Made by a program: the position numbers and the translations under genes. Of a stretch of DNA of 64,000 nt, positions 31,112 through 60,401 are shown in pieces. Positions within the stretch are counted from its first letter, which is position 1. The number at the start of each line of letters is the position of its first letter. The notes beneath the pieces were generated by a model, which saw only the letters and a program-made list of their open reading frames with translations, was not told the origin of the DNA and did no database searches. The DNA comes from Desulfovibrio desulfuricans (GTDB lineage Bacteria; Desulfobacterota; Desulfovibrionia; Desulfovibrionales; Desulfovibrionaceae). The stretch is from NCBI RefSeq assembly GCF_024460775.1, contig NZ_JANFYZ010000002.1, forward strand, positions 30,954 through 94,953, given 5' to 3'.

Positions 31112-31165
31112 GCCTACTGCGCCGCGTGAAAGAGTGTGTTCATCAGAACCGTATCCCTATGCAGC

Positions 31166-31333: not shown

Positions 31334-31345
31334 AGCGGGCCTCCC

Positions 31346-35106: not shown

Positions 35107-35730
35107 TTAGGCCGCGCTGGTGTCCGCTTCTTTGGCGGGGGCTTCAGCGGCGGCTTCGTCCTTGGTTTCTTTTTTCATCTTGTTCTTGATCTTGCCGACC
35201 AATGTTTTGCCTTCCTCAACCTTTTCCTTGAAGTAGGTCTTGGCTTCTTCGGCATTGAAATCAATCAGGTTGCCGCCCTTTCTGAAATGGCGGTCAAAAA
35301 CCCAGCCAAGGGCATAGGTACTGGCGCCGCCCATAATGCTGATGGTGGCCGCGCCCGCGGTGAAGCCAATGACCGGAATGCTTTTCAGCAGCGAGGCGGC
35401 CAGGGGCACGCTTGCCGTGGTCAGAAAACCGCCGCAGAGCGAAGAAACGATGGATTTGACGCGTTCTTTTTTGAATTCAACGCCGTGAGCCTCGGCCAGT
35501 GCGTGGATAAGCTCAATCTGGAGGGCGGAGAGACCCAGAAAATCTACAAGGGGCACCGGCACAAAGCCAATGCCGATAGCGCCGTATACGCGCTTGCGGA
35601 TGATGGCGTCCACCACTTCTTCCGAAGGGCAGGCGCGTTCGCACGTTTCTGCTTCAGCAGCGGTTTCGGCCTGGCAGGCCATCTGATCTTCAACGCCGTC
35701 GACCTTGTTTTCCAACGTATCTTTTGTCAT
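35107..35730 (-). CDS. DUF697-like membrane-associated protein (start at MTKDT; ORF opens at 35817)
   Basis: Core VPVPLVDFLGLSALQIELIHALAEAHGV...SIPVIGFTAGAATISIMGGASTYALG resembles DUF697 (YcjF-type) domains. Lys/Glu-rich tail. Confidence 0.5.
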   Translation of the reverse strand: MTKDTLENKVDGVEDQMACQAETAAEAETCERACPSEEVVDAIIRKRVYGAIGIGFVPVPLVDFLGLSALQIELIHALAEAHGVEFKKERVKSIVSSLCGGFLTTASVPLAASLLKSIPVIGFTAGAATISIMGGASTYALGWVFDRHFRKGGNLIDFNAEEAKTYFKEKVEEGKTLVGKIKNKMKKETKDEAAAEAPAKEADTSAA

Positions 35731-35770
35731 GTGCAACCTCGTTGTGGCCGGTTTCAGGGTTACGGGAATT

Positions 35771-36904: not shown

Positions 36905-37185
36905 GGAACAAAATACCCTATGATGCGTTCTTGGTGACACAGAGTGTCCGCCGCTCGGCGGTTCTACCCCAAAACTGGAGTGGAGTTCTTCCAAAATCCG
37001 TGCAGAGCAGACAAACGTTTTTTTATGGTAATCTGCGCTATTGGCGGCGTTGGGCCATCCGGATTTTCACACGGGCGCAAAACCATGCGCGCATGTTTCA
37101 ACATATCAGAGGAAAAGCGGTATCGTCCACATGAATTTGGGGCGCGCATCGGCATTTCTGCATGTTTTTTGGCGGGTTGCAGGGA

Positions 37186-38649: not shown

Positions 38650-38658
38650 GTGTTGCGC

Positions 38659-46000: not shown

Positions 46001-49000
46001 CGCTCTTTCCCATGCCGGTGGAGGGCGAGTTTTACCGCGTGGTGTTGCTCAAGGGCCGCACCAGCCTTGAGTTCCACGACTTTTCCCATTTGCCGGAGGC
46101 CGAGGCCGAGGCGGAAGCACAGGCCCTGCTGCGCGCGGAGCGGCAGCGCGGCTTTGACGTGCAGCGCGGCCCTCTGCTGCGGGCGCGCTTTTTCCGCCGG
46201 GGTGCCGACCGCGTGGTCATGAGCTGGTGCTTCCACCACCTGCTTATGGACGGCTGGTGCATGGGCGTGCTGCTGCGGGAGCTTTTTGCCCTGGCCGGGG
46301 CCAAGGGTGGGCCGGAAAACAGCCGTTTGCCGGAGCCTTTCCCGCTGGAGACCTATTCCCGCTGGCGCGCGCAATTTGATGAGCGTGCGGCGCGGGCCTA
46401 CTGGGCTGGATTGTTGCAGGATTTCAGCGGGCCAACCGGGGTTGAGCTGGCCCAACCGGCTCCCCGCGCTGCCGCCCCCGGGGAATTTGACGAACCGCTG
46501 ACAGTGGAACTGGAGCTGGACGCCGCCCTGAGCGCCAGCCTGCAAGAACTGGCAAAAACAGAGGCGGTGACGCTCTCCGCCCTTGTTCAGATGCTGTGGG
46601 CCATTGTGCTCGGCAATGCCAACAATGGCTGCCGCGATGTGGTCTTTGGCGTGGTTACTTCGGGCCGTCCGGCGGAGCTGGCGGGCATTGAGTCCGCCGT
46701 GGGGCTGTTCATCCAGACCTTGCCCCTGCGGGCGCGCTGGACAGCCAGCGACTCCCTCGGCGCGCTGCTGGCCCAGGTGAAAGAGCAGAATCTGCAACAG
46801 ATGCGCTATGGCTATGTGCCCCTGTCGACACTGGGCAGAAACCTGCTCGACCACCTGATGGTCTTTGAAAATTATCCTGTGGACACGAGTTTTGATCACA
46901 ATCGTGTTGAACTGCGCGACATGCGCGGTTTTGAAAAGCTGCCTTACGCCCTGGGCATTTCGGTTATTCCTGGCGTGAATCTGCGTTTCCGCTTTTTATA
47001 TGATCCCGAGCGCTTGCCCGAAGAGAGGGCGCTTGCCCTGCGCAATGGGCTGCATGCCGTGCTTGCGGCAGCAGCCTCAGGGCGCGCGCGTACCTGCCTT
47101 GCGCTGGAAGAAGCGGCGAACAACGCTGGGGCAGGCGCAGAAAGGCCCGCAGGAGAACATGGCGGCGCAGAACTGGGCGGGGCAGAAAATGCGCCCGGTG
47201 ACGCTGCCGCCGCAACCGGGCAAGCCCAGGTCCCGCAGGGGCCGGATGTGGCGGCTCTGGCGGAAACCGTGCGCGCTGCCTATGCCGCCGTGCTTGGTTG
47301 CCCTGTGGATTCTGTGGATGCGGATTTTTTCCAGCTTGGAGGGCACAGCCTGATAGCCATGAGTCTGCTCTCGCAGTTGAGCAAAAGCCTCTCCGTGGCA
47401 GTGGGCATAGAGGATGTGATGGGCTACCCCAGCCCGCGCGCCCTTGCCGCCCGCATTGGCAGTCTGGCAAAGCCGGATGCTGTTATTCCGCGAGTGGAAG
47501 AGCTTGCAGCCTACCCCCTGTCGCCAGCCCAGCAGCGCATCTGGTTTCTGCAAAAGCTGCATGAGGGCGGTCAGGTTTATGTGATTCCCTTTGCGGCCCG
47601 GTTGCGCGGCCCCGTGGATGCAGTGGCCCTGCAAAAGGCCCTGACATTGCTTGAGGAAAGGCACGATGCCCTGCGCCTGCGCGTGGCGCTGGATGCACCG
47701 GAGCAAAGCCTTGCCCCTGCTGGCGGTCTGCGGCTTGAAAGCTACGATACGCCCCTGACTGATGCAGCCTACCTAGGCATGAGCCTGCCTCTGGGGCCGG
47801 AAAGGCCCTTGGTGCGCGTGGCCCTGTTCCGGCAGGAGGACGGCAGCCATGCGCTGGTGTTCTGCTTCCATCACATCATATTTGACGGCTGGTCGGCGGA
47901 AGTTATCACCCGCGAACTCAACGAAGCCTACGGCGCGGTGTTGCAAGGCCGTGTGCCGCAGTGGCGGCCTCTGGATCTGGATTTTGCAAGCTACGCCCTG
48001 TGGGAATCGCAGCGGGAGGCGGAAGGGCTTGAGCAGATATGCAGCGACCTCGCGCCCCTGCCGGAGCGTTTGCGCCTGCCGCTGGATTACCCCCGCCCGG
48101 CGGTACAGCGTTTTGAAGGGGCCGTGCAGAGTTTTGATCTGGGGCTTGAGCGCAGCCACGCCCTCAAGGACTGGGCCCAGCGGGCCGGGGTAACGGTATT
48201 TCCCGTGCTGCTTGCGCTGGTGGATGCCTTTTTGCTCCGCCATACCGGGCAGGACGACATTATTGTGGGTTGCCCTGCGGCAAACAGGGAGCATGAGCAG
48301 GTTCAGGGCGTTGTGGGCCTCTTTGTCAACACCCTCGCAGTGCGGGCGCGCATGAACGCGCAGGGCGGCTTTGCCGAGTTGGCAGGCACGGTGGATGCCG
48401 CATTCAGAAAATCTTTGGCCGTGCAAAGCTGCCCCTTTGAAAAAGTTATCGAAGCCGTGGGGGTGGAGAGAAATGCCGCGCGCAATCCCGTATTTGACGT
48501 GTTTGCCGCGCTGGAAGACGCAAGCTGGAACAATTTTGGCCGTGCGCCCCTGTGCATGGAGCCTCTGCCCCTGCCGCACCAGAGCAGCAAGTTTGACCTG
48601 AGTTTTTACTTCAAGGAGCGGGCGGACGGCGGCTATACGGTGGATGTGGAATACTGCACCGAGCTGTTCAGCCCGCAGACAGTCCGCCGCATGGCGGAGC
48701 GCCTGCTGACCCTTGCGGACGCCGTGCTGGCTGATGATGCAAAACCCTTGGCCGAACTGGATATTCTGCCAGCGCGGGAGCGCGCAGAACTTGCCAGCTT
48801 TAATGATACGGCGGAACCGCTGGATGTCGCCGCCGACATGGACAGCCGTTTTCGCGCTCAGGCTGCCCGCACTCCCCATGCTCCGGCAGTGCTGGACGCC
48901 GCAGGCACGGCTGTTTCCTATACGCAGTTCAACGCGCAGGTGGATGCCGTGTGCGCATGGCTGCAAGGGCAGGGCGTGGAGCGCGGGCAGTATGTGTGCA

Positions 49001-52000
49001 TGTGTTTTGAACGCTCGCCCGCTATGCTGGCCTGCATTTTTGCAGTTTTGCGGCTTGGGGCAGTCTATGTGCCGCTTGCCGCCACTTTGCCCGCCGAGCG
49101 CATGCGGTCTGTGTTTGAAGACCTCGGGCAGTGCGTGGTGCTGTGCGAAGCGCGCTTTGCGGAGGCCTTCCGCAAAAATTTGCAGGACGGGCAGAATGGG
49201 CAGTACGGCCAGCGCGTGCTCTCGCCTGATTTTGAGGCGCTGGTCGCTGGCGCGCAGGTGCCGGGCGCTGTTCCTCATTATGAAGCGGACCCCTTGCCGC
49301 CGGATTCCCCGGCCTACGTGATCTTTACTTCCGGTTCCACCGGGCGGCCCAAGGGCGTGCCTATCGGACACGCCAGCGTTGCCAACCGTCTGTTGTGGAT
49401 GCAGTCGCGCTTTCCCATCGGGCAGGGCGACGTGGTGCTGCAAAAAACCACCATCACCTTTGACGTGTCGGTATGGGAGCTGTTCTGGTGGTCGTGGCAG
49501 GGCGCTGGCATTGCCCTGCTGGAACCGAATGCGGAGAAAAATCCTGCCCTTATTGTGCAGGCCATAGAGAGCCGCCGGGTCACGGTGCTGCATTTTGTGC
49601 CGTCCATGCTGCGGGCCTTTCTGGATCATCTTGAGGCGCATCCCGGCGATGTGCGCAGACTGCGGTCATTACGCTATGTGTTCACCAGCGGCGAGGCCTT
49701 GCCCCGCGAGCTTGTGGCGCGGTGGAACGCCCTGACGCATGCGGATCAGTTGCAGGTGGAACTGCACAATCTCTACGGCCCCACCGAGGCTACCGTGGAC
49801 GTCTCTTGGCAGCCCTGCCTGAACACGCCGCCCCATGCGGTACCCATTGGCCGCCCGGTCAGCAATACCCGGCTATACGTGCTGGATGCCTGCAAGAACC
49901 CTGTGCCGCTGGGCGTAACGGGTGAGATTTATATCTCGGGCATACAGGTTGCCAGAGGTTATCTGAATAGGCCCGACCTCACGGCCCAGCGTTTTATGGA
50001 TGATCCTTTTGCCCACGGCAGCCGTATGTACCGCACGGGCGATCTGGGGCGATGGCTGACTGATGGCAGCATTGAATACCTCGGGCGCAACGATGATCAG
50101 GTGAAAATTCGCGGCTACCGCATTGAGCTTGGCGAGGTCGAGGCGGCGCTTGGGCGCTGCCGGGGCGTCTCGCAGGCGGTGGTGAGGATGGGGCGCATTG
50201 GCGAATACGCGGCGCTTGAGGCCTTTTTGCTGCCGCAGGGCGGCGCGCGGCTTGATCTGGCAGGCATCCGCGCGGAGCTTGCGGCCCTGCTGCCCAACTA
50301 CATGTGTCCGTCCCGCTTTTTTGTGGTGCAAGACATCCCGCTGAGTCCCTCGGGCAAGGCAGACCGCAAGCGCTTGCAGGGCCAGCCCCTGCTGGCGGGT
50401 GGAGAAAGGAGCGCCGTCCCTGAGCATGCCCCGGATGCATTGCAGTCTGGCCCTCAGTCTGGTCTGGAATCCGGCCTCTCCCCCACATTGATCGAAGCCG
50501 TGCGCGAAGTGTGGCGGCAGGTTATGCCAGAAGTGGAAGCGGGTTCTGATTTGGGATTTTTTGACGCGGGGGGCAATTCGCTCCTGCTGGTGCGGCTGCA
50601 CACCCTGCTGGACAAGCAGTGGCCGGGAGTATTCACGCTGGCCGGGCTTTTTTCAGAAAGCACCATCCGCGCGCAGGCCACCTTTATTGCGCGTGTGCAG
50701 CAGGTTGGCAGCACGGTTGCAACCCGCCATGCAACCACAGCGCCCATAGCCATTATCGGTATGGCCGTGCGCCTTGGCGATTATGCCGATGTGCAGAGCT
50801 TCTGGCGCGATCTTGCCAGAGGCGCGGACAAGAATATTCCCATGCCCGAAAAAAGGCGCGGCGAAACGCGGCAGATATTTGATGCCGTGGGCCTTGCCTT
50901 TGACAAGGCCCGCCTGCGCGAGGCCGCCTATCTTTCGGACATTTCCTCCTTTGATTACCGGCGGTTCGGTCTTTCGCCCAACGATGCCAGCCTGCTTGAC
51001 CCGGCCCAGCGCGTGTTTCTTGAAACAGCCCTGCGTGCCCTGGACGATGCGGGCTACGGCGGCAGCGCCCTGGAAAACGCCGATGTGGGCGTTTTTGTGG
51101 GCGCAAGCCCGGTGCGCCTGTTCCAGACTGCCGTGACGCGGGCCTTTCCCGATCTGGCGGAGCAGACCTACCTGCTCAATGTGCCTTCCAACGTGCTGGC
51201 CCGTCTGAGCTACATGAAAAACTGGCACGGCCCTGCGGCCAGCGTCGATACGGCCTGTTCGTCTGTGCTGGCGGCCCTGCATCAGGCCTGCCGCAGCCTG
51301 CACGAGGGCGAGTGCGCCGTGGCCCTTGTGGGCGGCGCGCATGTTATTGATCTGCCTGTAAAGGCCGATGCGGCCTTTGCCATCGAGTCTGTCTCTGGCC
51401 GTACAAGAACCTTTGACGCCGAGGCCGAAGGCGTTGGCGCGGGCGAAGGGGCGGCGGTATTTCTGCTCAAGCCGCTGGATGCCGCACTGCGCGATCATGA
51501 TGCCATACATGCGGTGATCCCCGGCAGCGCCGTCAATCAGGACGGCAAGTCCTCCAGCATGGCCGCGCCCAATCCCGAGGCGCAGGCCGAGGTCATTGAC
51601 CGCGCTGCACGGAACGCGGGCGTCTCACTGGCGGACATCCAGTTTTTTGAGGCCCACGGCACGGCTACTGTTCTGGGCGACCCGGTGGAAATCGAGGGCC
51701 TGCGCAGGGCCTTTGCGCGGCAGGGCGCGCGGCGGGAGCACAAGGCACTTATCGGTTCGGTCAAGGGTAATCTGGGGCATCTGGATGCCGCCGCTGGCGC
51801 TGCCGGCCTTGCCAAGGCCGTGCTCTGCCTTGAAAACGGCCTTGTGCCGCCGCAGCCGCATTTTGAGCGGCCCAATCCCCATATCGATTTTGAGGCCGCG
51901 CCCGTGCGCGTGGCGCAGATGCTTGAGCCGTTGCCTCCGCAGGAGCGCCCCTGGCGTTGCGGCGTCAGTTCCTTTGGCCTCAGCGGCGTAAATACCCATG

Positions 52001-55000
52001 TGATTGTGGCGGAGCATCAGGCGCAGCCTTTGCCGCAGGACGACGGGCACTGGCAGTGCGTTGTGTTTTCCGCCCCGGACGAAACCTCGTTGCAGGACTA
52101 CGCCAAGGCGGTCGCGGCGGCTGTGGCGCGCAACGAGGGCTGGCCCCTGCATGCCATTGCCGCCACCCTCATGACCGGGCGGGATGCCCTGCCTGTGCGT
52201 GCGGCTCTTGTGGCGCGTTCCCGGCAGGAGCTACTTGAGCAGCTTGAGGCCGGACTCACGGGCGTTGCCGCGGGCAATGCGGCACGCCATGACAGCCGGA
52301 GCAGTATGGAAAATCCGCTCCCCGGCGCATTCTTTGCCTCGCAGGAAGCGGCGCAGGCAGCCGCCAGCGCCTACCTTGCCGGGGCAAGGATTGCGTGGCC
52401 CGCAGAAAAGCCCGTCTACAGGGTGCATCTGCCCGCAGCCCCCCTCGCCGCCGCTACGTTGTGGCCGCGTTTTGCAGCGCACTTTCTTTCCGAACCCGTC
52501 ATAACGCCTGCCGGAAAGGCCTTTGCCCTTGCCGTGGACAGGCCGGATTTCTGGCCTGCGGCGGAGCACAGGCTTGAGGGCACCCCCTTGCTGGTGGGCA
52601 TGAGCCTGCTGGATTGTCTTGGATGGATCGGCGGAGCCGCCCCCCTGAGCCTGCACGACCTGCGCTGGCGCAAGCCAGTAACCTGCGGCCCAGGACGCCG
52701 CGTGGTGCTGCTGGCGCAGGAGCAGGGCGATGCCCTTGCCGTGGAACTGCACCATTTTGAGCCTGCCGACCACAAGGCTGGCGAGACTTCTACTAAGTGG
52801 CAGGCCACTGGCACGTGGAGCGTGGCCGCCAGCGGCCTTGTGCGCGGCGGGACTGCCCGCCCTGCGGCGTTGAATCTGGCTACAGTGCGCGAAAGTCTGC
52901 GCGAAATTGCGCAGCAAGATACGCCGGAAGATTCGCCGCTCATGGTCAGCGGGCGCTGGCAGTGCCGCAAGGCGCTCTGGGTGGCGGAGGACGGCAATAC
53001 CCTGCTGGCAGAGCTGTGCCTGCCCGAGGCCTATCGTGCGGATTTCAATACCTTCCGCTGGCATCCGGCCATGATGGATATTGCCGCAAGCCTTGCCCTG
53101 CGCGACGCTTACGGGTTTGTGCCCGCTGGTTGCCGCATGGCGCGGCTCCACAGCCCCCTGACCGCGCAGGCCTTTGCGCTGGTGCGTATCACTGACCGTC
53201 AGCAGGGCATGATTGTGGCCGACTGCGCGGTGACGGACGCCTCGGGCCAGATTGTTGCGGAGCTTGAAGGAATGACCTTTATGGCCCTTCGCAAGGGACA
53301 GGCCGTTGGCAAATCCGGCCCGGATACGCCGCAGATTCATTCTTTGCATAGTGACCAGCCTCAGTCGGAACTGTACGCCATTGGGTGGAAGCAGGCCGAT
53401 CTGGAAGGCTCTGTTGCCGGGCCGCAAAACATCATCTTGCTTGGCGGGCAGGGGAGCCTTTTGGGTGAAACCCTGGAGCCGCTTGCGCACGCGCACCGTC
53501 CCTTGCCCTTGCTGGCGGATGAAGCCCGCGCTCTGGCGCGTGAAATCCTTGCTGGCCCCACAGATCATCTGCTCTGGCTGCCTGCATCACAGTCTGCTGG
53601 ACAGCATGGCGGGCAAAACGACACGTGGCCGCTCTGCGCCCTGCTGCAAGAGATTTGCAGCGGTGGTCTGCGCCGCCCCCTGCGCGTCACCGTTGTGGGC
53701 AGGGGGGCCTTTGTGGCAGGCGGTTCTACCCCTGAACCGCATCAGGAATGTTTGCCGCAGGGTGCGTTGTACATGGGGCCGCTTCTCTGCCTGCCGTGGG
53801 AAGAACCCAGAATTTCCTGCGCCTATGTGGAGCTTGAGGAGCAGAACGCAGCTTCCGTAGCGGCCTTTGCGGCCAGCCTCGGGCTGGTTGACGGGCCGTA
53901 TGTGGCGGCACACGATGGCACGGTGCGTGTGCGTGAGCTGGTCAAGCTGCCATCTGCGCCTGCGCTAACCACTATGCCCGTTATAACAAAGAACGGTTGC
54001 GTGGTGATCACCGGCGGCCTCGGAGGCATGGGCCAGACGCTGGCGCGCCAGATTTATGAGCGCCACGGCGCGCACGTGGTTTTGCTGCACAGAAGCAGCC
54101 AGTTGCCGCCCCATGCGCTGGAGGGCGTGCCCTTTGTCGCCTTCCGCTGCGATGTCGCGGACGCCGCGCAGGTTGAAGAGGTTTTTGCAAAAATCCGGCG
54201 CGAGGTCGGCCCGGTGCAGGGCGTCATTCATACGGCTGGCGTGGCTGGCAGGGGCTATCTGCTGACCAGCGACAGGCAGGGATATGAATCCGTACTGGCC
54301 CCCAAGGTGGCTGGCACCTGGAATCTGCACAAGGCAACCCTTGGCGATGATCTGGCCTTCTTTGTGCTGGCTTCATCGCGCACGGCCCTTGTGGGTGCGC
54401 CGGGGCAGAGCGACTACACCGCCGCCAATGCCTTTTTGAACGCTTTTGCCCGGTATCGCCGCCGCCTTGGGCTGCCCGCGCTTTCCATTAACTGGAACAC
54501 ATGGTCGGGCGTGGGCATGGCCGTTCGCGAGGGGCTTGGCAACGGGCCGGAGGCCGCAAACATGCTTGCGCCGCAGCAGGCCCTTGCCGTGCTTGAAGCC
54601 GCACTTGCCAGCGGTGAGGAACTTGTGGCTGTGGGCATGACGGGCGAAAGCGTAGAGGATTTTGCCCTTAACGGCCTGCCCGGGAGCGAGTTGCCCGGCA
54701 GCATGTTGGGCAGCGCGTCAATCAGCAGCAGTGCGGCGAAGGGCAATGCCACGCAGGCGCAACCCGGCGTTAATGCCGACAGTCTTGATGGGGCGGCCCT
54801 GCTTGAGATTATCCGCGATTGCCTTGGATATGACAGACCGCTGACCAGAGAGGACGACTTTTTTGATCTGGGCGGTGATTCCATTGCCGCAACGCGCATT
54901 GTGAACAGGCTGGACAAGGAGGCGGGGCTTGCCCTCGCTGTGGCGGATCTGCTGGAAAGCGACACCCTCGGCGATATTGTTGACTGCGCCCTTGCCTCGT

Positions 55001-56853
55001 GCAAGCCAACGCAGCCGCTGCAACAAACCGAGGAAACAACGCCAGTTCTGGATAAGTACCCCGTGGGCAACGAGCAGCTTGCCATCCTGTATGCCGACAT
55101 GGTCAGCGAGGGTGATCTGGGTTTCAACCTGCCAGCATTCCTTGTGATGCCGCCTGATGCGGACGCGGCGCGGCTTGAAAAGGCCCTTGCCCAGATTGTG
55201 GAACGGCACGAGGCGTTGCGCACGAGCTTCTGCGATTTTGAGGCCGAGCGTCCGGCCATGATTATTCATCCCTTTACGGGATTTACCCTTGAAGAAAGGC
55301 GCATCCCAGATCTTGCGCACAAGGATGACATTATCCGGCCCTTTAACCTGCGGAACGAAACGGGCTTTCGCGCCTGCCTGCTTGTGACCGATGCGGGTGA
55401 AAAGGTGTTGTTCATTGATCTGCACCACGCCCTTGGGGACGGCAGAACCATGTCGCTGCTCAATGTGGAGCTGTACCGCCTGTATCACGGGCTGGAGCTT
55501 GCGCCTGTGACCGCGCAGATGAAGGATATTGCCTGGCGGCAGGTCATGCATCCCGATGCCGAAGCCGCAGCCTACTGGCAGAATATTTACAAGGACGAAT
55601 TGCCCCGGTTGGACCTGCCCGCATCGCATCCCCGCCCCCGGGTTCATACCGGCAGGGGCGGCACGTATGAATTTGATCTCGCACCGGAGCTTGTACAGGC
55701 CATCAAGAGCCTGGCCCGCAGGGAAGGGCTGACCAACTATCAGGTTTCGCTCTGCGCCTGGAGCCTGCTGGCGCAGGCCTACACCGGCTCGCAGGATATC
55801 GTGGTCGCTGTTTCGATGGACGCGCGGGGCGAACATCTCAACACCGCGGGCATGCTGGCGTCAGTGCTGCCGCTGCGTTTCAGCGTAGATCCCGACAAGC
55901 CTCTTTCCGCCCTGCTGCGCGCCACGCGGCAGGTAAGCAACGAAGGCATGCGCCACCGTGCCTACATTCTGAACAGCCTGCTGGCGGACCTCCGGCAGAC
56001 CGCATGGCCGGACAGATCGCCCCTGTCGGAGATCATTCTCTCATACATGAACTTTGAATTTGCCGCCGAAGGGCAGGGCCTGTTTGAATCCCTGCGGTTC
56101 AGCAAATTTTCCAGCAAGACGGATCTTTCCATCTTTGTGAGCGATATTGGCGAGAGCATAAGCATTGCCATTGAATACTACGCAGATCTGTTCAGTGAGG
56201 CCGATGTGCTGCGCATGGCCCGCGACTATGTGCGCATGCTTGAACTCATGACCTCCGCGCCTGTGGACGCGCCGCTGCGCTTTATGCCCACTGATTTGCC
56301 GTGCGCCGCTGGCGGCGCGGTAAGCCTCGAGCAGTGCGAAGCCTTGGCCCCGGCAGCCTTGCAACAGGGCATTGAAGCCTTGGCTGCGGGCAAGGGAGCA
56401 TCTGCCGAAGCGGTGCTGCTGACGGTGTTTGCCGTACTGATGGGCAAGGTGACCCAGCAGGAGCAATTTGTGGTGGAAGTGCCGCCAGAGTGCGCCATCA
56501 GGTTCAGCATTGACGACAATATGGAGTTTGATGAACTGCTGGCCTTCACGCAAAAGAGGCTGACGGAAAAGGCTGGTATGGGGGGGGCTGACCACGGTGA
56601 TTCTGGCCCTGCCGATACTGACATGCCCGCCATGCAAAGCGGCCTGCGTTTGGGCTTTGCTTTGGCAGAGGGGAGTATCTCCACACCTGCGCAGGGCAAG
56701 GGTTACGGCCTGTTCTGCTCGGTTCGGGAACAGGAGGAAGGTCTGGCCCTTTATTTTGCGTATGATCCGCAGCAGGTTGGCGCGGAAACAGCTCAGGACT
56801 GGCTGACCTATTACGGGAATTTTCTTGAAGGCATAATTGAAGGGGCGGCATGA
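40033..56853 (+). CDS. hybrid NRPS / AT-less PKS megasynthase (~5606 aa): Cstarter-A-T, C-T-E, C-T, C-A-T, KS-DH-KR-ACP, C, plus a ~170-aa C-terminal tail
   Basis: Single uninterrupted ORF (opens at GTG 40021; ATG 40033 has a GGGGGA RBS). Domain motifs were read directly (see domain entries below). The stop overlaps the next NRPS start (ATGATGA). Confidence 0.9.
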   Translation: MAKIVPLTGCQKELWLSAKAALSDYAETSIRGCYHIDALLDPDLLRQAIKRTLHFTPLPAASLCQDEAEPYFLVGEPQEPDFRVLDAATQPDPDAAADRMIDEFFEEPVENPLMRYALVITGEASCIVAMKCSHVVLDGLAFFFHIAVIADVYTALARGETPELGEPCSCEEAYLEDQAHCASPRFQKDMTFWQEHLARLPEKRLLRALPGRPDVLGESRHQKFVLSEKTSSETSALIAAHKVSPAVFFTGIYALIVSFMSGEKDIVALAPVAYGERKVLYRRQGAMMSLPPLLVNVAAHDTFAGLLEAVSAQNGSFYRHVRTPYQLAARQLEGKNFAFLADTFVNFLPNTPPGTPEFPIVEAEQRHSAKEPILFGTLVMQELRSGCFSLTVRNSRNHLSDRDVERFVARVESVVAQLAAGIEPPQLDYLLEEEKRELAQWRSGPARKYDIRSLPELFDAAADAFAGRVAVRDEWGNSLSYAQVRENSLRCASWLAGQGVARGGIVAVAAQRTANLPEVVLGIQRLGAVYLPIDPKAAPDRMAYIVEDAGADITLDLADLAYRQAPISPLPQAPRAEDGAYLIYTSGSTGKPKGVLAPHGGFANMIQGQIELFGVQADDHVLQFAPPIFDASLSEMFMALLAGAALYPVSDQCRNAPWTLRQYMIDNDISIVTLPPSYLNLFEGEPFPGLRVLITAGEPPVVGDALHYAKGLRYFNAYGPTETCVCAAMKEVSPFEPQPIGVGSPIPNVTLSIRNAEGRELPAGMAGELWIGGASLALGYHNKPEMTEQRFVHLPQEGNARFYASGDLALWSDKGEILLLGRADDQVKIRGNRVELAEVACLLESCESVSQAAVLAVKDAGGQASLAAFFVLRPGASIEAVVSWSRTSLPPYMVPSAWHVLEAMPLAPTGKIDRKALQSLARRGDAQGGSVRKPHAGLLEIFERVLGRAYDPEKSFFAQGGNSLNAMSLLHAIRKTFDVDISFRSFVSCETLFDVESLLGGVRAESALAGIESAPLSTGQFRIWAYQQVNEGSIDYNMPLLLELRGDKTADFLEGLRRAANAQELFHCTVAGDIDNPHFARGKGEVYLCSVAIADAREAAVFFDQQIHTPFDLRVEPPVRLVAAVLPQCVQVLVLVHHVAGDGETLEILLQNALRYLRGEPPACGLLAVQEAFCRRQAAYAASPACADDAAYWQEVLTPPVPTVNPATGAASRKGAMIGVDLDAETAQGFEILARNSGASVLACFVALAGRALCRRFDRKELLLGVPMGLRETQDEFCAAGFYVNTVPLRVRLDGLEDSAAVADAARQMRQAIEHSRYCAADIVPEFLATHAHFEPVGVPGLELNRLELELRASKLTASFTLVTGTASRIVLEYDAGCIADAPALLDDLAQSMRRACEGLARRNPRQVLADAWREILHPGSSSAVQEESDFFRDGGDSIKAIQITGILRRSGITALSAPDFLRKPHFGDLCTLLESADSELSAAQAMDYTPVAPGEQVPLLPFARYFLGAHPSHWRQFFMLLPLEIRSDVPTASIEAWLQTLPENHESLRMAFAPDHAVLLAEPQKITLHCRDFADTVEQTSLLRKAVAEITEGLDAACGKTLGAMLARQGERRFLLLVGHHLALDALSLETLRQGLLHYCRTGKAQCEAHGLALRAREVERLRAAGVFPSEEQRALWRAACAEPCEPLRALLPQSRDRGRDSAASRARLSAQLEGFRQEYSTDAKADLLAALACALHAQGQKAAVRVTLESHGRDELLSGFDASRSLGWFTAVCPMPLGPSLNYAQAREALGPWLAQHFSPENCNAYGYLRQENPAEFGYAAQIAFNYLGRLTGQPDEEASLMLSALAPGLIPELVHADMEADAPLELSVFFDQQGILHLGAWFSPQCLPQDWVSGLLQSWRAALKTLPAYLPQQTLDAIFAACGCHAEDVERIAQPDAGHAPLLYQSLLAQSGVYTQQVEFHFRGPVDVFALMRAWEALTARHESLRSLFPMPVEGEFYRVVLLKGRTSLEFHDFSHLPEAEAEAEAQALLRAERQRGFDVQRGPLLRARFFRRGADRVVMSWCFHHLLMDGWCMGVLLRELFALAGAKGGPENSRLPEPFPLETYSRWRAQFDERAARAYWAGLLQDFSGPTGVELAQPAPRAAAPGEFDEPLTVELELDAALSASLQELAKTEAVTLSALVQMLWAIVLGNANNGCRDVVFGVVTSGRPAELAGIESAVGLFIQTLPLRARWTASDSLGALLAQVKEQNLQQMRYGYVPLSTLGRNLLDHLMVFENYPVDTSFDHNRVELRDMRGFEKLPYALGISVIPGVNLRFRFLYDPERLPEERALALRNGLHAVLAAAASGRARTCLALEEAANNAGAGAERPAGEHGGAELGGAENAPGDAAAATGQAQVPQGPDVAALAETVRAAYAAVLGCPVDSVDADFFQLGGHSLIAMSLLSQLSKSLSVAVGIEDVMGYPSPRALAARIGSLAKPDAVIPRVEELAAYPLSPAQQRIWFLQKLHEGGQVYVIPFAARLRGPVDAVALQKALTLLEERHDALRLRVALDAPEQSLAPAGGLRLESYDTPLTDAAYLGMSLPLGPERPLVRVALFRQEDGSHALVFCFHHIIFDGWSAEVITRELNEAYGAVLQGRVPQWRPLDLDFASYALWESQREAEGLEQICSDLAPLPERLRLPLDYPRPAVQRFEGAVQSFDLGLERSHALKDWAQRAGVTVFPVLLALVDAFLLRHTGQDDIIVGCPAANREHEQVQGVVGLFVNTLAVRARMNAQGGFAELAGTVDAAFRKSLAVQSCPFEKVIEAVGVERNAARNPVFDVFAALEDASWNNFGRAPLCMEPLPLPHQSSKFDLSFYFKERADGGYTVDVEYCTELFSPQTVRRMAERLLTLADAVLADDAKPLAELDILPARERAELASFNDTAEPLDVAADMDSRFRAQAARTPHAPAVLDAAGTAVSYTQFNAQVDAVCAWLQGQGVERGQYVCMCFERSPAMLACIFAVLRLGAVYVPLAATLPAERMRSVFEDLGQCVVLCEARFAEAFRKNLQDGQNGQYGQRVLSPDFEALVAGAQVPGAVPHYEADPLPPDSPAYVIFTSGSTGRPKGVPIGHASVANRLLWMQSRFPIGQGDVVLQKTTITFDVSVWELFWWSWQGAGIALLEPNAEKNPALIVQAIESRRVTVLHFVPSMLRAFLDHLEAHPGDVRRLRSLRYVFTSGEALPRELVARWNALTHADQLQVELHNLYGPTEATVDVSWQPCLNTPPHAVPIGRPVSNTRLYVLDACKNPVPLGVTGEIYISGIQVARGYLNRPDLTAQRFMDDPFAHGSRMYRTGDLGRWLTDGSIEYLGRNDDQVKIRGYRIELGEVEAALGRCRGVSQAVVRMGRIGEYAALEAFLLPQGGARLDLAGIRAELAALLPNYMCPSRFFVVQDIPLSPSGKADRKRLQGQPLLAGGERSAVPEHAPDALQSGPQSGLESGLSPTLIEAVREVWRQVMPEVEAGSDLGFFDAGGNSLLLVRLHTLLDKQWPGVFTLAGLFSESTIRAQATFIARVQQVGSTVATRHATTAPIAIIGMAVRLGDYADVQSFWRDLARGADKNIPMPEKRRGETRQIFDAVGLAFDKARLREAAYLSDISSFDYRRFGLSPNDASLLDPAQRVFLETALRALDDAGYGGSALENADVGVFVGASPVRLFQTAVTRAFPDLAEQTYLLNVPSNVLARLSYMKNWHGPAASVDTACSSVLAALHQACRSLHEGECAVALVGGAHVIDLPVKADAAFAIESVSGRTRTFDAEAEGVGAGEGAAVFLLKPLDAALRDHDAIHAVIPGSAVNQDGKSSSMAAPNPEAQAEVIDRAARNAGVSLADIQFFEAHGTATVLGDPVEIEGLRRAFARQGARREHKALIGSVKGNLGHLDAAAGAAGLAKAVLCLENGLVPPQPHFERPNPHIDFEAAPVRVAQMLEPLPPQERPWRCGVSSFGLSGVNTHVIVAEHQAQPLPQDDGHWQCVVFSAPDETSLQDYAKAVAAAVARNEGWPLHAIAATLMTGRDALPVRAALVARSRQELLEQLEAGLTGVAAGNAARHDSRSSMENPLPGAFFASQEAAQAAASAYLAGARIAWPAEKPVYRVHLPAAPLAAATLWPRFAAHFLSEPVITPAGKAFALAVDRPDFWPAAEHRLEGTPLLVGMSLLDCLGWIGGAAPLSLHDLRWRKPVTCGPGRRVVLLAQEQGDALAVELHHFEPADHKAGETSTKWQATGTWSVAASGLVRGGTARPAALNLATVRESLREIAQQDTPEDSPLMVSGRWQCRKALWVAEDGNTLLAELCLPEAYRADFNTFRWHPAMMDIAASLALRDAYGFVPAGCRMARLHSPLTAQAFALVRITDRQQGMIVADCAVTDASGQIVAELEGMTFMALRKGQAVGKSGPDTPQIHSLHSDQPQSELYAIGWKQADLEGSVAGPQNIILLGGQGSLLGETLEPLAHAHRPLPLLADEARALAREILAGPTDHLLWLPASQSAGQHGGQNDTWPLCALLQEICSGGLRRPLRVTVVGRGAFVAGGSTPEPHQECLPQGALYMGPLLCLPWEEPRISCAYVELEEQNAASVAAFAASLGLVDGPYVAAHDGTVRVRELVKLPSAPALTTMPVITKNGCVVITGGLGGMGQTLARQIYERHGAHVVLLHRSSQLPPHALEGVPFVAFRCDVADAAQVEEVFAKIRREVGPVQGVIHTAGVAGRGYLLTSDRQGYESVLAPKVAGTWNLHKATLGDDLAFFVLASSRTALVGAPGQSDYTAANAFLNAFARYRRRLGLPALSINWNTWSGVGMAVREGLGNGPEAANMLAPQQALAVLEAALASGEELVAVGMTGESVEDFALNGLPGSELPGSMLGSASISSSAAKGNATQAQPGVNADSLDGAALLEIIRDCLGYDRPLTREDDFFDLGGDSIAATRIVNRLDKEAGLALAVADLLESDTLGDIVDCALASCKPTQPLQQTEETTPVLDKYPVGNEQLAILYADMVSEGDLGFNLPAFLVMPPDADAARLEKALAQIVERHEALRTSFCDFEAERPAMIIHPFTGFTLEERRIPDLAHKDDIIRPFNLRNETGFRACLLVTDAGEKVLFIDLHHALGDGRTMSLLNVELYRLYHGLELAPVTAQMKDIAWRQVMHPDAEAAAYWQNIYKDELPRLDLPASHPRPRVHTGRGGTYEFDLAPELVQAIKSLARREGLTNYQVSLCAWSLLAQAYTGSQDIVVAVSMDARGEHLNTAGMLASVLPLRFSVDPDKPLSALLRATRQVSNEGMRHRAYILNSLLADLRQTAWPDRSPLSEIILSYMNFEFAAEGQGLFESLRFSKFSSKTDLSIFVSDIGESISIAIEYYADLFSEADVLRMARDYVRMLELMTSAPVDAPLRFMPTDLPCAAGGAVSLEQCEALAPAALQQGIEALAAGKGASAEAVLLTVFAVLMGKVTQQEQFVVEVPPECAIRFSIDDNMEFDELLAFTQKRLTEKAGMGGADHGDSGPADTDMPAMQSGLRLGFALAEGSISTPAQGKGYGLFCSVREQEEGLALYFAYDPQQVGAETAQDWLTYYGNFLEGIIEGAA
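40036..41330 (+). other. NRPS condensation domain, N-terminal (starter-type position)
   Basis: HHxxxDG core as SHVVLDGLAFF at ~40423-40455. First domain of the protein, preceding A1. Confidence 0.7.
41380..42790 (+). other. NRPS adenylation domain A1
   Basis: A3 LIYTSGSTGKPKGV (41776-41817), A5 NAYGPTETC, A7 YASGDLA, A8 GRADDQVKIRGNRVEL, A10 PLAPTGKIDRKAL. Confidence 0.85.
42830..43030 (+). other. thiolation (PCP) domain T1
   Basis: FFAQGGNSLNAMSL with phosphopantetheine-attachment serine. Confidence 0.8.
43070..44290 (+). other. condensation domain C2
   Basis: C1-like LSTGQFRIWAYQQ and HHVAGDGETL at ~43441. Confidence 0.75.
44290..44480 (+). other. thiolation domain T2 (directly after C2, no A domain)
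   Basis: DFFRDGGDSIKAIQITGIL. Confidence 0.75.
44500..45770 (+). other. epimerization-type domain (E), C-domain superfamily
   Basis: Position after a T domain. E1-like PLLPFARYFLG (cf. PxxPxQxWF) and E2-like HHLALDALSLE (HHxxxDxxS) at ~44887. Confidence 0.5.
45800..47090 (+). other. condensation domain C4
   Basis: HHLLMDGWCMGVLL at ~46231. C-domain length and secondary motifs (YPLS/NYLGRL-type). Confidence 0.7.
47250..47460 (+). other. thiolation domain T3 (after Ala/Gly-rich linker; no A domain in this module)
   Basis: FFQLGGHSLIAMSLLSQL at ~47329. Confidence 0.8.
47490..48790 (+). other. condensation domain C5
   Basis: YPLSPAQQRIWFLQ (C1) and HHIIFDGWS (C3) at ~47866. Confidence 0.8.
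48800..50380 (+). other. adenylation domain A2
   Basis: A3 VIFTSGSTGRPKGV (49321-49359), A5 NLYGPTEAT, A7 YRTGDLG, A8 GRNDDQVKIRGYRIELGEVE, A10 LSPSGKADRKRL. Confidence 0.85.
50480..50700 (+). other. thiolation domain T4
   Basis: FFDAGGNSLLLVRLH at ~50557. Confidence 0.8.
50737..52030 (+). other. ketosynthase (KS) domain
   Basis: PIAIIGMAVRL. Active-site DTACSSVLAAL (Cys). Catalytic His motifs EAHGTATVLGDPVE and GSVKGNLGHLDAAAGAAG. Confidence 0.9.
52470..53300 (+). other. dehydratase-like (DH) domain; no AT domain between KS and DH
   Basis: HxxxGxxxxP-like HRLEGTPLLVGMSLLD (~52563) and downstream D-motif region DIAASLALRD. No GHSxG acyltransferase motif anywhere in the 52030-53990 interdomain region. 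Confidence 0.5.
53990..54540 (+). other. ketoreductase (KR) domain
   Basis: Rossmann motif VVITGGLGGMGQTLAR, then the SDR catalytic region ending ...NWNTWSGVGMA. Confidence 0.8.
54790..54990 (+). other. acyl carrier protein (ACP/T) domain
   Basis: FFDLGGDSIAATRIVNRL. Confidence 0.8.
55030..56330 (+). other. condensation domain C6 (pairs with the A-T-TE of the next protein)
   Basis: HHALGDGRTM at ~55423. C6/C7-like SKTDLSIFV and IEYYADLF. Confidence 0.8.
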
Positions 56854-59800
56854 TGAAGCTATCGGATTTTTCCTTTGCCGCTCCTGCAAAAAATTCTGCA
56901 AGGCCTGAATCTGCCGGTATTTCAGGTTCTGGCCCGCAGACAGCGGGCACCACGCAGGCAGAGCAGGACTTTGTCAGCCTTGAGCACCTGTTCCGCAGCA
57001 TTGCCGACGCAAGGCCAGAGGTCCAAGCCCTGACCGGGGGCGGCCTGGGGCTGACCTTCAGGGAACTGGACGTTCTTTCGGAGCGTATTGCCCGTTTTAT
57101 CCTTACGCAGGGGTATGGGCACGAGGCTGTGGTGGGCGTGCTGTGTGCGCGCGGCGCGGTGTATCTGGCTGCGGCCCTTGGCGTCATGCGGGCCGGGGCG
57201 GTGTATCTGCCCGTGGAGCGCGAGCAGCCGCAAAGCCGCAAAGAGGCCATGCTGCGGCCCGCAAGCCTGATTATTGCCGACAGCGCCTGCCTGCGCGAGG
57301 CCGAGTATTTTCATTACAGAAATCCCGGCATCCGGCACGTACTCTGCCTTGATGCGCAGGAGTATGACGATGCCGCCGAAAAAGGCACAGGCCTTGTAAG
57401 CACGGAATACTGGGAGCAGGTGGCGCAGGCGGGCAGCGACATGGGCTGGAAGAGCGATTTTGACGCCGCCCCCTGCCCGCAAAGCGAGCTTGCTGCCTTG
57501 GCCGCTGCCGTGCTTGAAAAATGCGGGCTGGCTCGCAAAGCAGAGGCTTACAGTGCAAAGGCATTTGCGGCAGGCCGCAAGGTGCTGGATGTGGGCAGCG
57601 GGTCTGGCTGCGTGGCGCAGGCGCTTGCCGGGGCCGCGCAGGAATATGCGGCCGTGGATCTGGCCCGCAATGAACTCAGCCGCCTTGCCGGTTTTGACGC
57701 TGCCGCCAGGGTGACGCCGTATCGTATGGAGGCGGCGGACATACATTTTCTTGAAGGCCAGACCTTTGACGTGGTGGTCATGAACGGCGTGGTGGAAAAT
57801 TTCCCCGGCTACAATTATCTGCGCAGGGTGCTGAATCACGCCGTACAGATGCTCACGCCAGAAGGTCTGGTTTTTGTGGGTGCTGTGCGCGATCTGGATT
57901 GCCGCAATGATCTGCGGGCAGCCTTGCAGGCCCATGCCCTTGCCACCGGCGATCAAACCGGCCTGCTGCGGCTTGATGCCTCTGCCGAGCTGTTTGTTCC
58001 CCGGCAGTTTTTTATGGAGTGGGCGGCGCGCTGCCCTGTGCCGGTGGAAGTGACGTTCTCCCCCTGCGGTCTGGGGCAAAACTCTAGCCAGAGCGCGGGG
58101 CAGACCTGCCCGGAGAGCGAAAGCCAGCATGGAGTGCAGGCCTTCCGCTATGATGTGGTCATCCGCCCCGGCGGCAGCCGTCCTCAGGTTCCGGTTTCGC
58201 TCTCGCGTTTTGGCGCGCAGCATCTGCCGCCTGCGGGCGGGCAAGCCCTGCCCCCATGCGATCCCGCCCAGGCTGCCTATATCGTCTATACCAGCGGTTC
58301 AACGGGCACTCCCAAGGGGGTGGTGGTAGAGCACCGCAACCTCATGCACATTTTGCGCGCCCTGCGGCCCTATGCGGCGGGCTGCGAGAGGGTGGGGCTG
58401 GTTGCGCCCCTGTCGTTTGACGCTTCTGTGCAGCAGTTGGCCGTGTCTGTCTTCAGCGGCAAAAGCCTGCATGTGCTGTCAGACGAAGAACGCAAGAACC
58501 CCTCGCTTTTTTGCGCCTGCGCGCGTGAGCGCGGGCTTGACCTGTGCGACATGACACCCGCGTTTTTCAACGTGCTTACAGACTGGCTTGCCGGGCAGCG
58601 CCAGCCGTTGCCGCTCAAGGCGTTGCTGCTGGCGGGCGAGGTGCTGCGGCCCGATGTTATCCGCAAATTTTACGCCATCCCCGGCAACGAGGGCGTGGTG
58701 CTGTTCAATGTGTACGGCCCCACGGAATGCACGGTGGACAGCAGCGCCTTTCGCATAGATGTGGGCAACCATCAGGATTTTACCGCCTATCCCATTGGCA
58801 GGCCTCTTGAAGGCGTGCGCATCTGCGCGATGGACAAAAATTGTCAGGAGTTGCCCGATTCCGTCACTGGCGAACTGTGGATTTTTGGCGATGGCGTGTC
58901 GCGCGGCTACCTGAACAACGCCAGCCCCGGTGCGTTTGTGGAAAAAAACGGCCAGCCCTGCTATCGCACGGGTGACAACGGTTATGTGCAAAATGGCCTT
59001 GTTTTTTACCGTGGACGCGAAGACCAGCAGGTGAAGATACGCGGCAACCGGGTGGAGCTTGGCGAGGTGGAAAAAGCCGTTGCGGGTTTTCCCGGCGTGC
59101 GTCAGGTGGCGGTGGTGGCGGATACATTTCGCGCCGGGGAGGAAAAGACCCTTGCGGCCTATGTGGTGGGCACTATCGATATGGCCGTGCTGCGCGGGTA
59201 TCTTGAGCAACACCTGCCGCCGTACTGCGTGCCCGCTTATTTTGTCCCCATGATGGAACTGCCGTTTTCGCTCAACCGCAAGATAGACAAAAAGGCTCTG
59301 CCGTCACCCCTGGGCGGGGTGGAAATTCAGCGTGGGCGCATGCCTGCCGGGCCTGTGGAAGAAAAACTGGCCGAGATATGGAAGCGCCTGCTGGGCGTTG
59401 ATATTACCGATGCCGATGCTGGTTTCTTCAGTCTGGGAGGTCACAGCATTCTTTCCATCAGGCTTATTGCCATGATTGAAAAGGAAATGGGCGTGCATGT
59501 GGCTGTGAACGAGCTGGTCACGCATTCAAGCATCGCGCAGCTTGCGGCCCTGCTGGCCGGAAAGACCGAAAAGCGCGAAAGCCCTGTTATCCAACTGCAA
59601 CACTGCGAGGGCGGCAAGAACCTTGTGCTGTTTCACCCTGTTGGCGGCAGCGTGTTCTGCTACAGCGACCTCGCGCGCCTGCTTGGCGGCAAATATACGG
59701 TCTACGCTGTTGAGGCGGCGGGATTCAGTCAGCGCCGCACATCGCTTACCACAGAGCTGCACACGGTTGAAAGTCTGTCGGAGTATTATCTGGACGAAAT

Positions 59801-60401
59801 GCTCAAGGTCGAGAGCCGGGATATCATCTGGGGCGGCTGGAGTTTCGGCGGCCTGCTGGCCTATGAATGCTCCCGGCGGTATGCGGCGATGGGCAACCGC
59901 AGCGAGCCTGTCATCATTCTCGATACCGTGGCCGACAATACCCGCGCAAAACAGATGGCGGCCAAGGATGACATCGAACTCTTGCAGCTCATTTTGCAGC
60001 AAGGTATGGCCTTTGACCCCGTAAAGCTGCGCGCCATGCCGCGTGAGCAGCAACTGGGCTATCTTGTGGAGTGCGGGGAGAAAAGCGGATTGTTGCCTGC
60101 CGGGTTCAGCGCCGTGCAGATGGACAACCTGCTGCTGACCTATCGCGGCAATACCCTGGCGGCTGCACGCTATGAGCGGCCAAGCCCTTCCGACTGCAAT
60201 CTGTTGCTGGTGCGCGCGCTGGATTTTGCAAGCAACCCGCAGATAATAATGAATGACGACTATCAGGGTTGGGGCCGCTTTTTGAAAAAGGAAAACATCT
60301 CGCTGCGCTGGACGCAAGGCACCCATGAAACCATGCTTTCTGCTGGCCTTGCCGCAAATGTGGCCCAGCTCATACTGGAATATCTTGAATGTGAAAAATA
60401 G
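56850..60401 (+). CDS. NRPS termination module: adenylation domain interrupted by a SAM-dependent methyltransferase (between A2 and A3), T domain, thioesterase (TE)
   Basis: ATG overlaps the stop of the upstream megasynthase (ATGATGA). A1 LTFRELD, A2 MRAGAVYLPVE, MT motif I VLDVGSGSGCVAQAL, A3 AYIVYTSGSTGTPKGV, A8 GREDQQVKIRGNRVELGEVE, A10 NRKIDKKAL, T FFSLGGHSILSIRL, TE GWSFGG (GxSxG). Confidence 0.9.
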   Translation: MMKLSDFSFAAPAKNSARPESAGISGSGPQTAGTTQAEQDFVSLEHLFRSIADARPEVQALTGGGLGLTFRELDVLSERIARFILTQGYGHEAVVGVLCARGAVYLAAALGVMRAGAVYLPVEREQPQSRKEAMLRPASLIIADSACLREAEYFHYRNPGIRHVLCLDAQEYDDAAEKGTGLVSTEYWEQVAQAGSDMGWKSDFDAAPCPQSELAALAAAVLEKCGLARKAEAYSAKAFAAGRKVLDVGSGSGCVAQALAGAAQEYAAVDLARNELSRLAGFDAAARVTPYRMEAADIHFLEGQTFDVVVMNGVVENFPGYNYLRRVLNHAVQMLTPEGLVFVGAVRDLDCRNDLRAALQAHALATGDQTGLLRLDASAELFVPRQFFMEWAARCPVPVEVTFSPCGLGQNSSQSAGQTCPESESQHGVQAFRYDVVIRPGGSRPQVPVSLSRFGAQHLPPAGGQALPPCDPAQAAYIVYTSGSTGTPKGVVVEHRNLMHILRALRPYAAGCERVGLVAPLSFDASVQQLAVSVFSGKSLHVLSDEERKNPSLFCACARERGLDLCDMTPAFFNVLTDWLAGQRQPLPLKALLLAGEVLRPDVIRKFYAIPGNEGVVLFNVYGPTECTVDSSAFRIDVGNHQDFTAYPIGRPLEGVRICAMDKNCQELPDSVTGELWIFGDGVSRGYLNNASPGAFVEKNGQPCYRTGDNGYVQNGLVFYRGREDQQVKIRGNRVELGEVEKAVAGFPGVRQVAVVADTFRAGEEKTLAAYVVGTIDMAVLRGYLEQHLPPYCVPAYFVPMMELPFSLNRKIDKKALPSPLGGVEIQRGRMPAGPVEEKLAEIWKRLLGVDITDADAGFFSLGGHSILSIRLIAMIEKEMGVHVAVNELVTHSSIAQLAALLAGKTEKRESPVIQLQHCEGGKNLVLFHPVGGSVFCYSDLARLLGGKYTVYAVEAAGFSQRRTSLTTELHTVESLSEYYLDEMLKVESRDIIWGGWSFGGLLAYECSRRYAAMGNRSEPVIILDTVADNTRAKQMAAKDDIELLQLILQQGMAFDPVKLRAMPREQQLGYLVECGEKSGLLPAGFSAVQMDNLLLTYRGNTLAAARYERPSPSDCNLLLVRALDFASNPQIIMNDDYQGWGRFLKKENISLRWTQGTHETMLSAGLAANVAQLILEYLECEK
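57420..58060 (+). other. embedded class I SAM-dependent methyltransferase domain inside the A domain
   Basis: Motif I VLDVGSGSGCV (57583-57612), post-I acidic residue (AAVDLA), motif II-like VVVMNGVVENFP, motif III-like LTPEGLVFVG. Located between A2 (LPVE) and A3 (YTSGSTG). Confidence 0.7.
59340..59560 (+). other. thiolation domain (terminal T)
   Basis: FFSLGGHSILSIRLIAMIEKE. Confidence 0.8.
59600..60398 (+). other. type I thioesterase (TE) release domain
   Basis: LVLFHPVGGSVFCYSDLA and the nucleophile motif GWSFGG. alpha/beta-hydrolase length. Confidence 0.8.

Follow-up and report, generated by a model that had tools for sequence, protein, structure and literature searches.

The window, a 64-kb stretch of Desulfovibrio desulfuricans DNA, carries a hybrid peptide-polyketide gene cluster built around a 5610-aa megasynthase. 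Inside this nonribosomal peptide synthetase (NRPS) line lies a single polyketide synthase (PKS) module (50737-54990), composed of a ketosynthase (KS), a KS-AT linker domain (LD), a dehydratase (DH), a ketoreductase (KR) and a carrier (T) domain, and followed by a condensation (C) domain. An acyltransferase (AT) is absent from the module, from the cluster and from the whole window. We consider it likely that this KS-LD-DH-KR-T unit is a functional, AT-less elongation module of the trans-AT type, malonylated in trans by an AT encoded elsewhere, for which the housekeeping malonyl-CoA:acyl carrier protein (ACP) transacylase, FabD, is the foremost candidate.

Domain architecture of the AT-less module

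Pfam matches and a self-BLAST domain map reveal the order C-A-T-C-T-C-C-T-C-A-T-KS-LD-DH-KR-T-C along the megasynthase, where A denotes adenylation domains (Table 1). The motifs quoted in an earlier note on this DNA all lie in frame in the open reading frame (ORF) 40021-56853: DTACSS (Cys3746), HGTATVLGDPVE (His3879) and GHLDAAAG (His3920) in the KS, VVITGGLGGMG in the KR and LGGDSIA (Ser4954) in the carrier. The carrier signature is the NRPS-type GGDS, not the usual PKS G-x-DS, a small correction to the earlier note. The C domain at 55051-56262 and its tail form a split module with the next gene (56850-60401), whose ORF overlaps that of the megasynthase by 4 bases. The specificity code of this terminal A domain, read from the sequence, is DAQDLAVVDK and Gln-like.

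Absence of an acyltransferase

Acyl_transf_1 (PF00698) was not found by Pfam at E<=1 in 51868-54000 nor in the tail at 55999-56850, and the C-terminal tail of the megasynthase contains only the end of the C domain. A match to this family in 52030-53990 or in the C-terminal tail had been named beforehand as the finding that would count against an AT-less module; it was looked for, and there is none. A motif scan detects no G-x-S-x-G between KS and KR.

For the remainder of the window, stop-to-stop ORFs of at least 40 aa from a six-frame translation were searched with unfiltered phmmer (--max) using two AT probes, E. coli FabD and the cis-AT encoded in a related cluster (L001). As a positive control, the FabD probe recovers the cis-AT of L001 at E=4e-27. 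Nothing in the window scores better than E=0.5 with either probe, and the probes find no AT in the 10 kb to the right of the window or within 10 kb of the module in related loci. The right-hand flank, taken from identical metagenome contigs, contains signalling genes, a molybdopterin oxidoreductase and nuo genes. Pfam was also run on the large ORFs of either strand of the window that were taken to be genes, and none of them is an AT. Thus both parts of the original claim, an AT-less module and no AT gene in the window, stand.

Several candidates were examined and set aside. Among real genes of the window, GHSxG strings occur only in a type II thioesterase and an M15 dipeptidase. The GHSMGG of the 238-aa protein was rejected as an AT signature because the protein is a PF00975 thioesterase, and two other GHSxG strings in the six-frame ORFs belong to the M15 dipeptidase and to an out-of-frame ORF. 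Three plus-strand ORFs without Pfam matches directly upstream of the megasynthase (37162-39963; 173, 180 and 516 aa) were considered as a possible novel loader and dismissed, as their translations are of low quality and the real genes there lie on the minus strand.

Linker and dehydratase structure

Global alignment, with penalized ends, of the KS-to-DH stretch to the cis-AT module of L001 (KS-LD-AT-T) locates the gap. The linker domains align (RAALVARSRQELLEQLEAG in the window, RRALVASTPEEAATALRAG in the cis-AT module), as do the post-AT linker motifs (YRVHLPAAPLAAATLW and RRVPLPGYPFQRLRLW, respectively), and the AT of ~310 aa in the cis-AT module stands opposite only ~26 aa in the window module. 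The KS flanking linker subdomain and the wrap-back (post-AT) linker are therefore both retained, and, judged from this alignment, an AT would be inserted within the linker region 51871-52464. Pfam assigns KAsynt_C_assoc and RhiE-like_linker / CurL-like_PKS_C to the linker at 51871-52257.

The ~640 aa between KS and KR had been described as DH-like and devoid of a GHSxG/AT motif. The second half of this description is borne out; the first is too broad, since the stretch is made up of linker with post-AT motif (~150 aa), DH (~280 aa) and KR structural subdomain (~210 aa). This leaves no space for an AT, and no AT remnant is present.

An AlphaFold model of residues 3978-4445, built from a ten-sequence family alignment (mean pLDDT 73), contains a linker domain followed by a complete double-hotdog. 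Its top Foldseek match in the PDB is 7zsk, the core of a trans-AT bimodule, followed by many PKS DH domains, with TM scores of 0.71-0.76. The predicted DH catalytic residues, His4183 (52567-52569) and Asp4353 (53077-53079), are conserved and correspond to the invariant H206 and D376 of the family alignment (A1). The surrounding motifs are atypical in all family members: HxxxGxxxxV/A (V in the window) does not end in P, DxxxS/G (S in the window) replaces DxxxQ/H, and there is no GYxYGPxF. The DH may have a modified activity, for example a second dehydration involving the Ser side chain.

Lineage of the ketosynthase

Ranking the KS against PDB sequences is not discriminating, with EryAIII, PksJ, CurL and several AT-less KSs all at ~290-310 bits. 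Because this ranking failed to separate cis-AT from trans-AT KSs, the lineage was traced among KS homologues instead. The 35 of these that resemble the window KS most closely all belong to AT-less modules. A neighbour-joining tree was calculated for 220 KSs among the hits of one homologue search, 55 of them followed by an AT; in it, the window KS falls within a clade of 48 KSs that includes none of the 55 AT-bearing ones. Bootstrapping on 72 KS sequences recovers the family as monophyletic (100%) within a wider AT-less clade (96%), and the nearest KS relatives outside the family are AT-less in 100 of 100 replicates. This lineage also contains large multi-module AT-less PKSs of Paenibacillus. 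Architecture, retained linkers, the structural match to 7zsk and the AT-less KS clade thus agree with the assignment to the trans-AT type made in the earlier note.

Conservation of the bimodule and selection

Several metagenome contigs match the window at 100% identity, and many carry a near-identical copy of the locus. KS-LD-DH-KR-T-C without AT is present in 12 of the 12 related genome loci that were fetched and in two further (metagenome) loci reached via homologous proteins; the genome loci come from Desulfovibrio metagenome-assembled genomes (MAGs), Halodesulfovibrio, Rhodospirillales, Chlorobiaceae and Ancalomicrobiaceae. None of these 14 loci, which span several phyla, has a discrete AT in the 10 kb around the module, and the sole AT in related loci is that of a separate FAAL-T-KS-AT-T loading-type module in L001.

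The A domain partnering the AT-less KS carries the code DVWHFSL(V/I)DK in every relative, though the A domains themselves are only 48-50% identical at the extremes. We take this code to be that by which EntF selects Ser. Among single-domain PDB matches of the partner A domain, EntF, which activates Ser, and Txo2 rank highest. What is conserved is therefore a bimodule, a Ser-like NRPS module joined to an AT-less KS-DH-KR.

Two relatives depart from the window layout. Two tandem carriers follow the KR in a Desulfovibrio MAG (L011, 13967-14470), as against one in the window. A Chlorobiaceae MAG (L016, 3234-14152) has a permuted gene order that is not collinear with the window; there, the Ser-code A domain and an A(MT)-T-TE unit (MT, methyltransferase; TE, thioesterase) precede the KS-DH-KR gene.

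The catalytic residues of the module, namely KS Cys3746/His3879/His3920, DH His4183/Asp4353, the Lys, Ser, Tyr and Asn of the KR, and carrier Ser4954, are conserved in relatives ranging from 93% to 36% identity. With its triad intact and conserved across the family, the KS is of the elongation-competent Cys-His-His type and not a non-elongating KS0. Comparison with four Desulfovibrio relatives reveals low dN/dS in each domain of the module (Table 1). Constraint in the region is strongest on the KS, whose dN/dS lies below that of the neighbouring A domain.

These observations bear on the idea that the module derives from a cis-AT module by recent loss of the AT and no longer works or is bypassed, leaving a line that makes a pure peptide. 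The AT-sized deletion relative to the cis-AT module of the related cluster and the atypical DH motifs are in keeping with such a relic. However, relatives in different phyla, down to 36% identity, are also AT-less, all the catalytic residues are conserved, the KS dN/dS is 0.04-0.08, and the KS clusters with AT-less and not with cis-AT KSs, so that we find this explanation scarcely credible. By all sequence criteria, the PKS module is functional and no relic.

Proposed mechanism and source of the extender unit

From the domain content, the following chemistry can be proposed. The carrier upstream of the KS (50494-50688) would pass the peptidyl-Ser chain to the KS, and the PKS carrier (54796-54987) would receive a malonyl extender in trans. 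The KS would take the peptidyl-Ser thioester and condense it with the malonyl group on the downstream carrier; the KR would reduce the resulting beta-keto group, and the DH would dehydrate the product to a 4-amino-5-hydroxypent-2-enoyl (vinylogous serine) unit. The A(MT)-T-TE protein would load a (methylated) Gln-like residue, to which the next C domain would couple the enoyl unit, and the TE would then release the product. Tyr, C2-extended (enoyl) Ser and a methylated Gln-like residue would be expected in this product.

With no AT in module, cluster or window, the carrier must be malonylated from elsewhere. FabD is the most economical candidate because none of the lineages examined has a dedicated AT alongside the cluster, because the cluster is otherwise self-sufficient, and because the FK228 system gives an experimental precedent (PMC12994790). 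The cluster encodes its own phosphopantetheinyl transferase (PPTase) and its own editing thioesterase, yet no AT, and none occurs among the accessory genes at 37186-39891, which lie on the minus strand and are divergent from the megasynthase.

Classical trans-AT systems use dedicated ATs, and the loader could accordingly be a free-standing trans-AT (PksC/LnmG-like, AT-AT or AT-ER) that is distant or located in another cluster of the genome, instead of FabD. Besides this established usage, the KS lineage itself speaks for such an enzyme, being AT-less and shared with the multi-module AT-less PKSs of Paenibacillus. A dedicated trans-AT would, however, be expected to accompany the cluster in at least some lineages; none of the 14 related loci has a discrete AT near the module, and a cluster that brings its own PPTase and type II thioesterase is otherwise self-sufficient. 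A dedicated enzyme is therefore unlikely, though it is the most probable of the alternatives to FabD.

Loading without a FabD-fold AT can also be envisaged: the carrier might malonylate itself, an adenylating enzyme might load it, or an alpha/beta-hydrolase, for instance the thioesterase-like protein of the cluster, might make the transfer. The PCP-like (peptidyl carrier protein-like) GGDS carrier fits this idea, as does the fact that most relatives have no AT accompanying the cluster. Two NRPS modules of the megasynthase also lack an A domain of their own, so that trans-loading may be a general trait of the line. To our knowledge, no such route to a malonyl-carrier is established for modular PKSs. 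In addition, the thioesterase-like protein, with its GHSMGG motif, is a type II thioesterase of the ordinary PF00975 kind, whereas recruitment of FabD has a direct precedent (PMC12994790), and loading of this kind appears quite improbable.

Five points weigh against malonylation of a serine-extending module by FabD. The GGDS carrier motif is conserved in the family, and it is a minority feature among KR-following carriers; its GG is also found in 15 of 82 other such carriers of the homologue set, on which count we set it aside as a minor oddity and not as evidence against AT loading. The search, covering the window and the 10-kb right flank, identified no loading AT. The atypical DH motifs make the outcome of the dehydration step uncertain. 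The serine assignment draws on a match to the EntF code and on the PDB ranking. Finally, the literature yielded no characterised product or study of this cluster family.

Relation to known systems

The module can be compared with trans-AT PKS/NRPS hybrids, such as bacillaene PksJ/PksL and the Brevibacillus brevis K3DAK4 bimodule (PDB 7zsk), in which a KS is likewise followed by a flanking linker and directly by processing domains, with no integrated AT. The window KS clusters with AT-less KSs, and its LD-DH model is best matched by 7zsk. Tandem carriers are common in trans-AT systems, and one relative, the Desulfovibrio MAG locus L011, has them. The window differs from these hybrids: in place of a multimodular PKS it has one PKS module inside an NRPS, its carrier bears an NRPS-type GGDS, and a free-standing AT is missing from the cluster and its surroundings. 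In terms of PKS classes, the Acyl_transf_1 domain with GHSxG between KS and processing domains that marks cis-AT type I modules is lacking; the architecture and phylogeny are those of a trans-AT module, and the free-standing AT of a trans-AT cluster is missing.

A functional precedent is the FK228 (romidepsin) dep cluster of Chromobacterium violaceum, in which AT-less hybrid modules are served by FabD of the fatty acid synthase and an Sfp-type PPTase is required (PMC12994790). Both systems are hybrid NRPS-PKS lines in which AT-less modules occur and whose clusters are devoid of AT genes, and the window cluster encodes an Sfp-type PPTase at 37186-37929 (-). The two differ in domain order, product and organism, and a role of FabD that is demonstrated for FK228 is here a proposal.

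A different resemblance concerns the Ser-activating step. Cyclolipodepsipeptides of the rakicidin / BE-43547 / vinylamycin type are made by a Ser NRPS module, followed by a PKS module with KR and DH and then by NRPS; this bimodule, which forms 4-amino-2,4-pentadienoate (APD), adds a C2 unit to Ser and so yields an unsaturated gamma-amino acid (PMC13110770, PMC5075396). Defining features of its family are an integrated AT and an atypical domain order, KR-DH (PMC13110770). The succession of NRPS module, one PKS module with KR and DH, and NRPS resembles that of the window, where the upstream A domain has a Ser-like code, and the relative L001 also begins with a FAAL-type lipid loading module. In contrast to the APD bimodule, the window module has the order DH-KR and no AT, and its line starts with a C domain, has one PKS module only and is not actinobacterial. 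The resemblance between the two bimodules would thus be functional only.

Extending this comparison, the Ser-type NRPS together with the AT-less KS-DH-KR and its atypical DH might do independently, and without an AT, what the APD machinery does in actinomycetes, and install a serine-derived electrophilic enoyl/dienoyl (4-amino-2,4-pentadienoate-like) warhead in a peptide of Desulfovibrio and other anaerobes. All of its loaders would be borrowed: the PKS carrier would depend on FabD, and the two A-less NRPS modules on shared A domains. We offer this as a speculative idea that has a rather low chance of being right. More narrowly, the PKS step most likely converts a serine residue to an unsaturated gamma-amino acid, a possible Michael acceptor.

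The earlier note regarded a single trans-AT module in an NRPS line of a sulfate reducer as unusual. The term sulfate reducer is fair wording, the nearest reference genome being Desulfovibrio desulfuricans SFAD67 (NZ_CP176628.1), with 93% nucleotide identity to the window. Calling the module unusual overstates the case, given that it is conserved in every relative found and has a precedent in FK228. Moreover, AT-less PKS fragments without a detected trans-AT are common, to the point that "transAT-PKS-like", a label of genome-mining reports, occurs in 52 papers of the literature searched. We take this label to be a category of antiSMASH, applied to trans-AT PKS fragments when a trans-AT is not detected. 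It covers the situation of the window, an AT-less KS module without a detectable AT in the region, but it is an annotation label and not a biochemical family, and it is silent on the source of the AT. The module is a new, conserved and uncharacterised example of a design known from other bacteria, and current concepts are unchanged by it.

What the locus adds is a hybrid peptide-polyketide cluster of a D. desulfuricans-like bacterium that is intact, under selection and dependent on an AT outside the cluster. For expression or mining of the cluster, an AT must be supplied, probably fabD. PKS enzymology gains a phylogenetically broad set of single-module, AT-free hybrids, which could be used to test the recognition of PCP-like carriers by FabD or other ATs.

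Other features of the cluster and the window

Coordinates of the megasynthase, its PKS module and the neighbouring cluster genes are collected in Table 1.

Table 1. Features of the hybrid cluster in window coordinates, with dN/dS of the PKS domains against four Desulfovibrio relatives
Feature	Coordinates	Strand	Evidence	dN/dS
Accessory cassette: ABC substrate-binding proteins, Band_7/SPFH, ABC ATPase, DUF697, small unknown protein	29966..36994	-	Pfam	
Sfp-type PPTase	37186-37929	-	Translation, Pfam	
Type II thioesterase, PF00975, GHSMGG, 238 aa	37933-38649	-	Translation, Pfam	
KamA-family radical-SAM aminomutase	38659-39891	-	NCBIfam TIGR00238, 260 bits vs cut-off 199	
Megasynthase gene, 5610 aa	40021..56853	+	ORF list, Pfam, self-BLAST domain map	
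A domain of the module upstream of KS; 10-residue code DVWHFSLVDK, Ser-like	48850..50370	+	Code read from sequence	
Carrier (T) domain upstream of KS	50494..50688	+	Pfam PP-binding	
Ketosynthase, intact Cys3746-His3879-His3920 triad	50740..51867	+	Pfam PF00109/PF02801	0.04-0.08
KS-AT linker domain (flanking subdomain), directly followed by post-AT-linker motif YRVHLPAAPLAAATLW (52417-52464)	51871..52464	+	Pfam, alignment	0.22-0.38
Dehydratase, double-hotdog fold	52480..53295	+	Pfam PS-DH, weak PKS_DH_N; CurF/CurK DH PDB sequence matches	0.17-0.35
Ketoreductase, structural then catalytic subdomain (Pfam KR 53995-54507)	53341..54660	+	Pfam KR/adh_short; Rossmann motif GGLGGMG	0.11-0.23
Carrier domain of PKS module, Ser4954 within LGGDSI	54796..54987	+	Pfam PP-binding	0.06-0.17
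Condensation domain (55051-56262) and ~195-aa tail	55051..56850	+	Pfam	
Terminal NRPS protein, 1183 aa: A domain with inserted methyltransferase, then T, TE	56850..60401	+	Pfam, ORF list	

Within the megasynthase, two NRPS modules at 43018-47520 (+) do not include an A domain, namely C(HHVAGDG)-T and C(HHLALDA, possibly E-like)-C(HHLLMDG)-T. With six carrier domains facing only three A domains, trans or shared loading of amino acids seems to be needed as well. The methyltransferase of the terminal A domain is inserted ahead of the a3 motif (YTSGSTGTPKG, ~aa 470), and such an N-terminal insertion site is the less common one.

The KamA-family protein matches the subfamily model for radical-SAM 2,3-aminomutases and no equivalog (Lys, Arg or Glu); its presence suggests a beta-amino acid as a building block. 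The families of the cassette at 29966-36994 also adjoin homologous megasynthases in distant taxa (L001, 22221-27428; L002, 14672-19938), and the cassette may serve the cluster in export or immunity.

Plus-strand ORFs at 18793-22329 and 37162-39963 (1178, 173, 180 and 516 aa) are antisense shadows in GC-rich DNA and not genes; the real minus-strand genes behind them are lon, clpX and those of the PPTase, the type II thioesterase and the KamA-like protein. At the left side of the window, 3680-7993 (+) encodes an HpcH-type aldolase, an NAD-dependent epimerase/dehydratase, a CMP-sugar cytidylyltransferase, a hexapeptide acyltransferase and a HAD phosphatase, and adjoins flagellar genes (flgG and flgA at 108-2262) and a methyl-accepting chemotaxis protein (MCP). 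This group looks like a nonulosonic-acid pathway, perhaps serving flagellin glycosylation.

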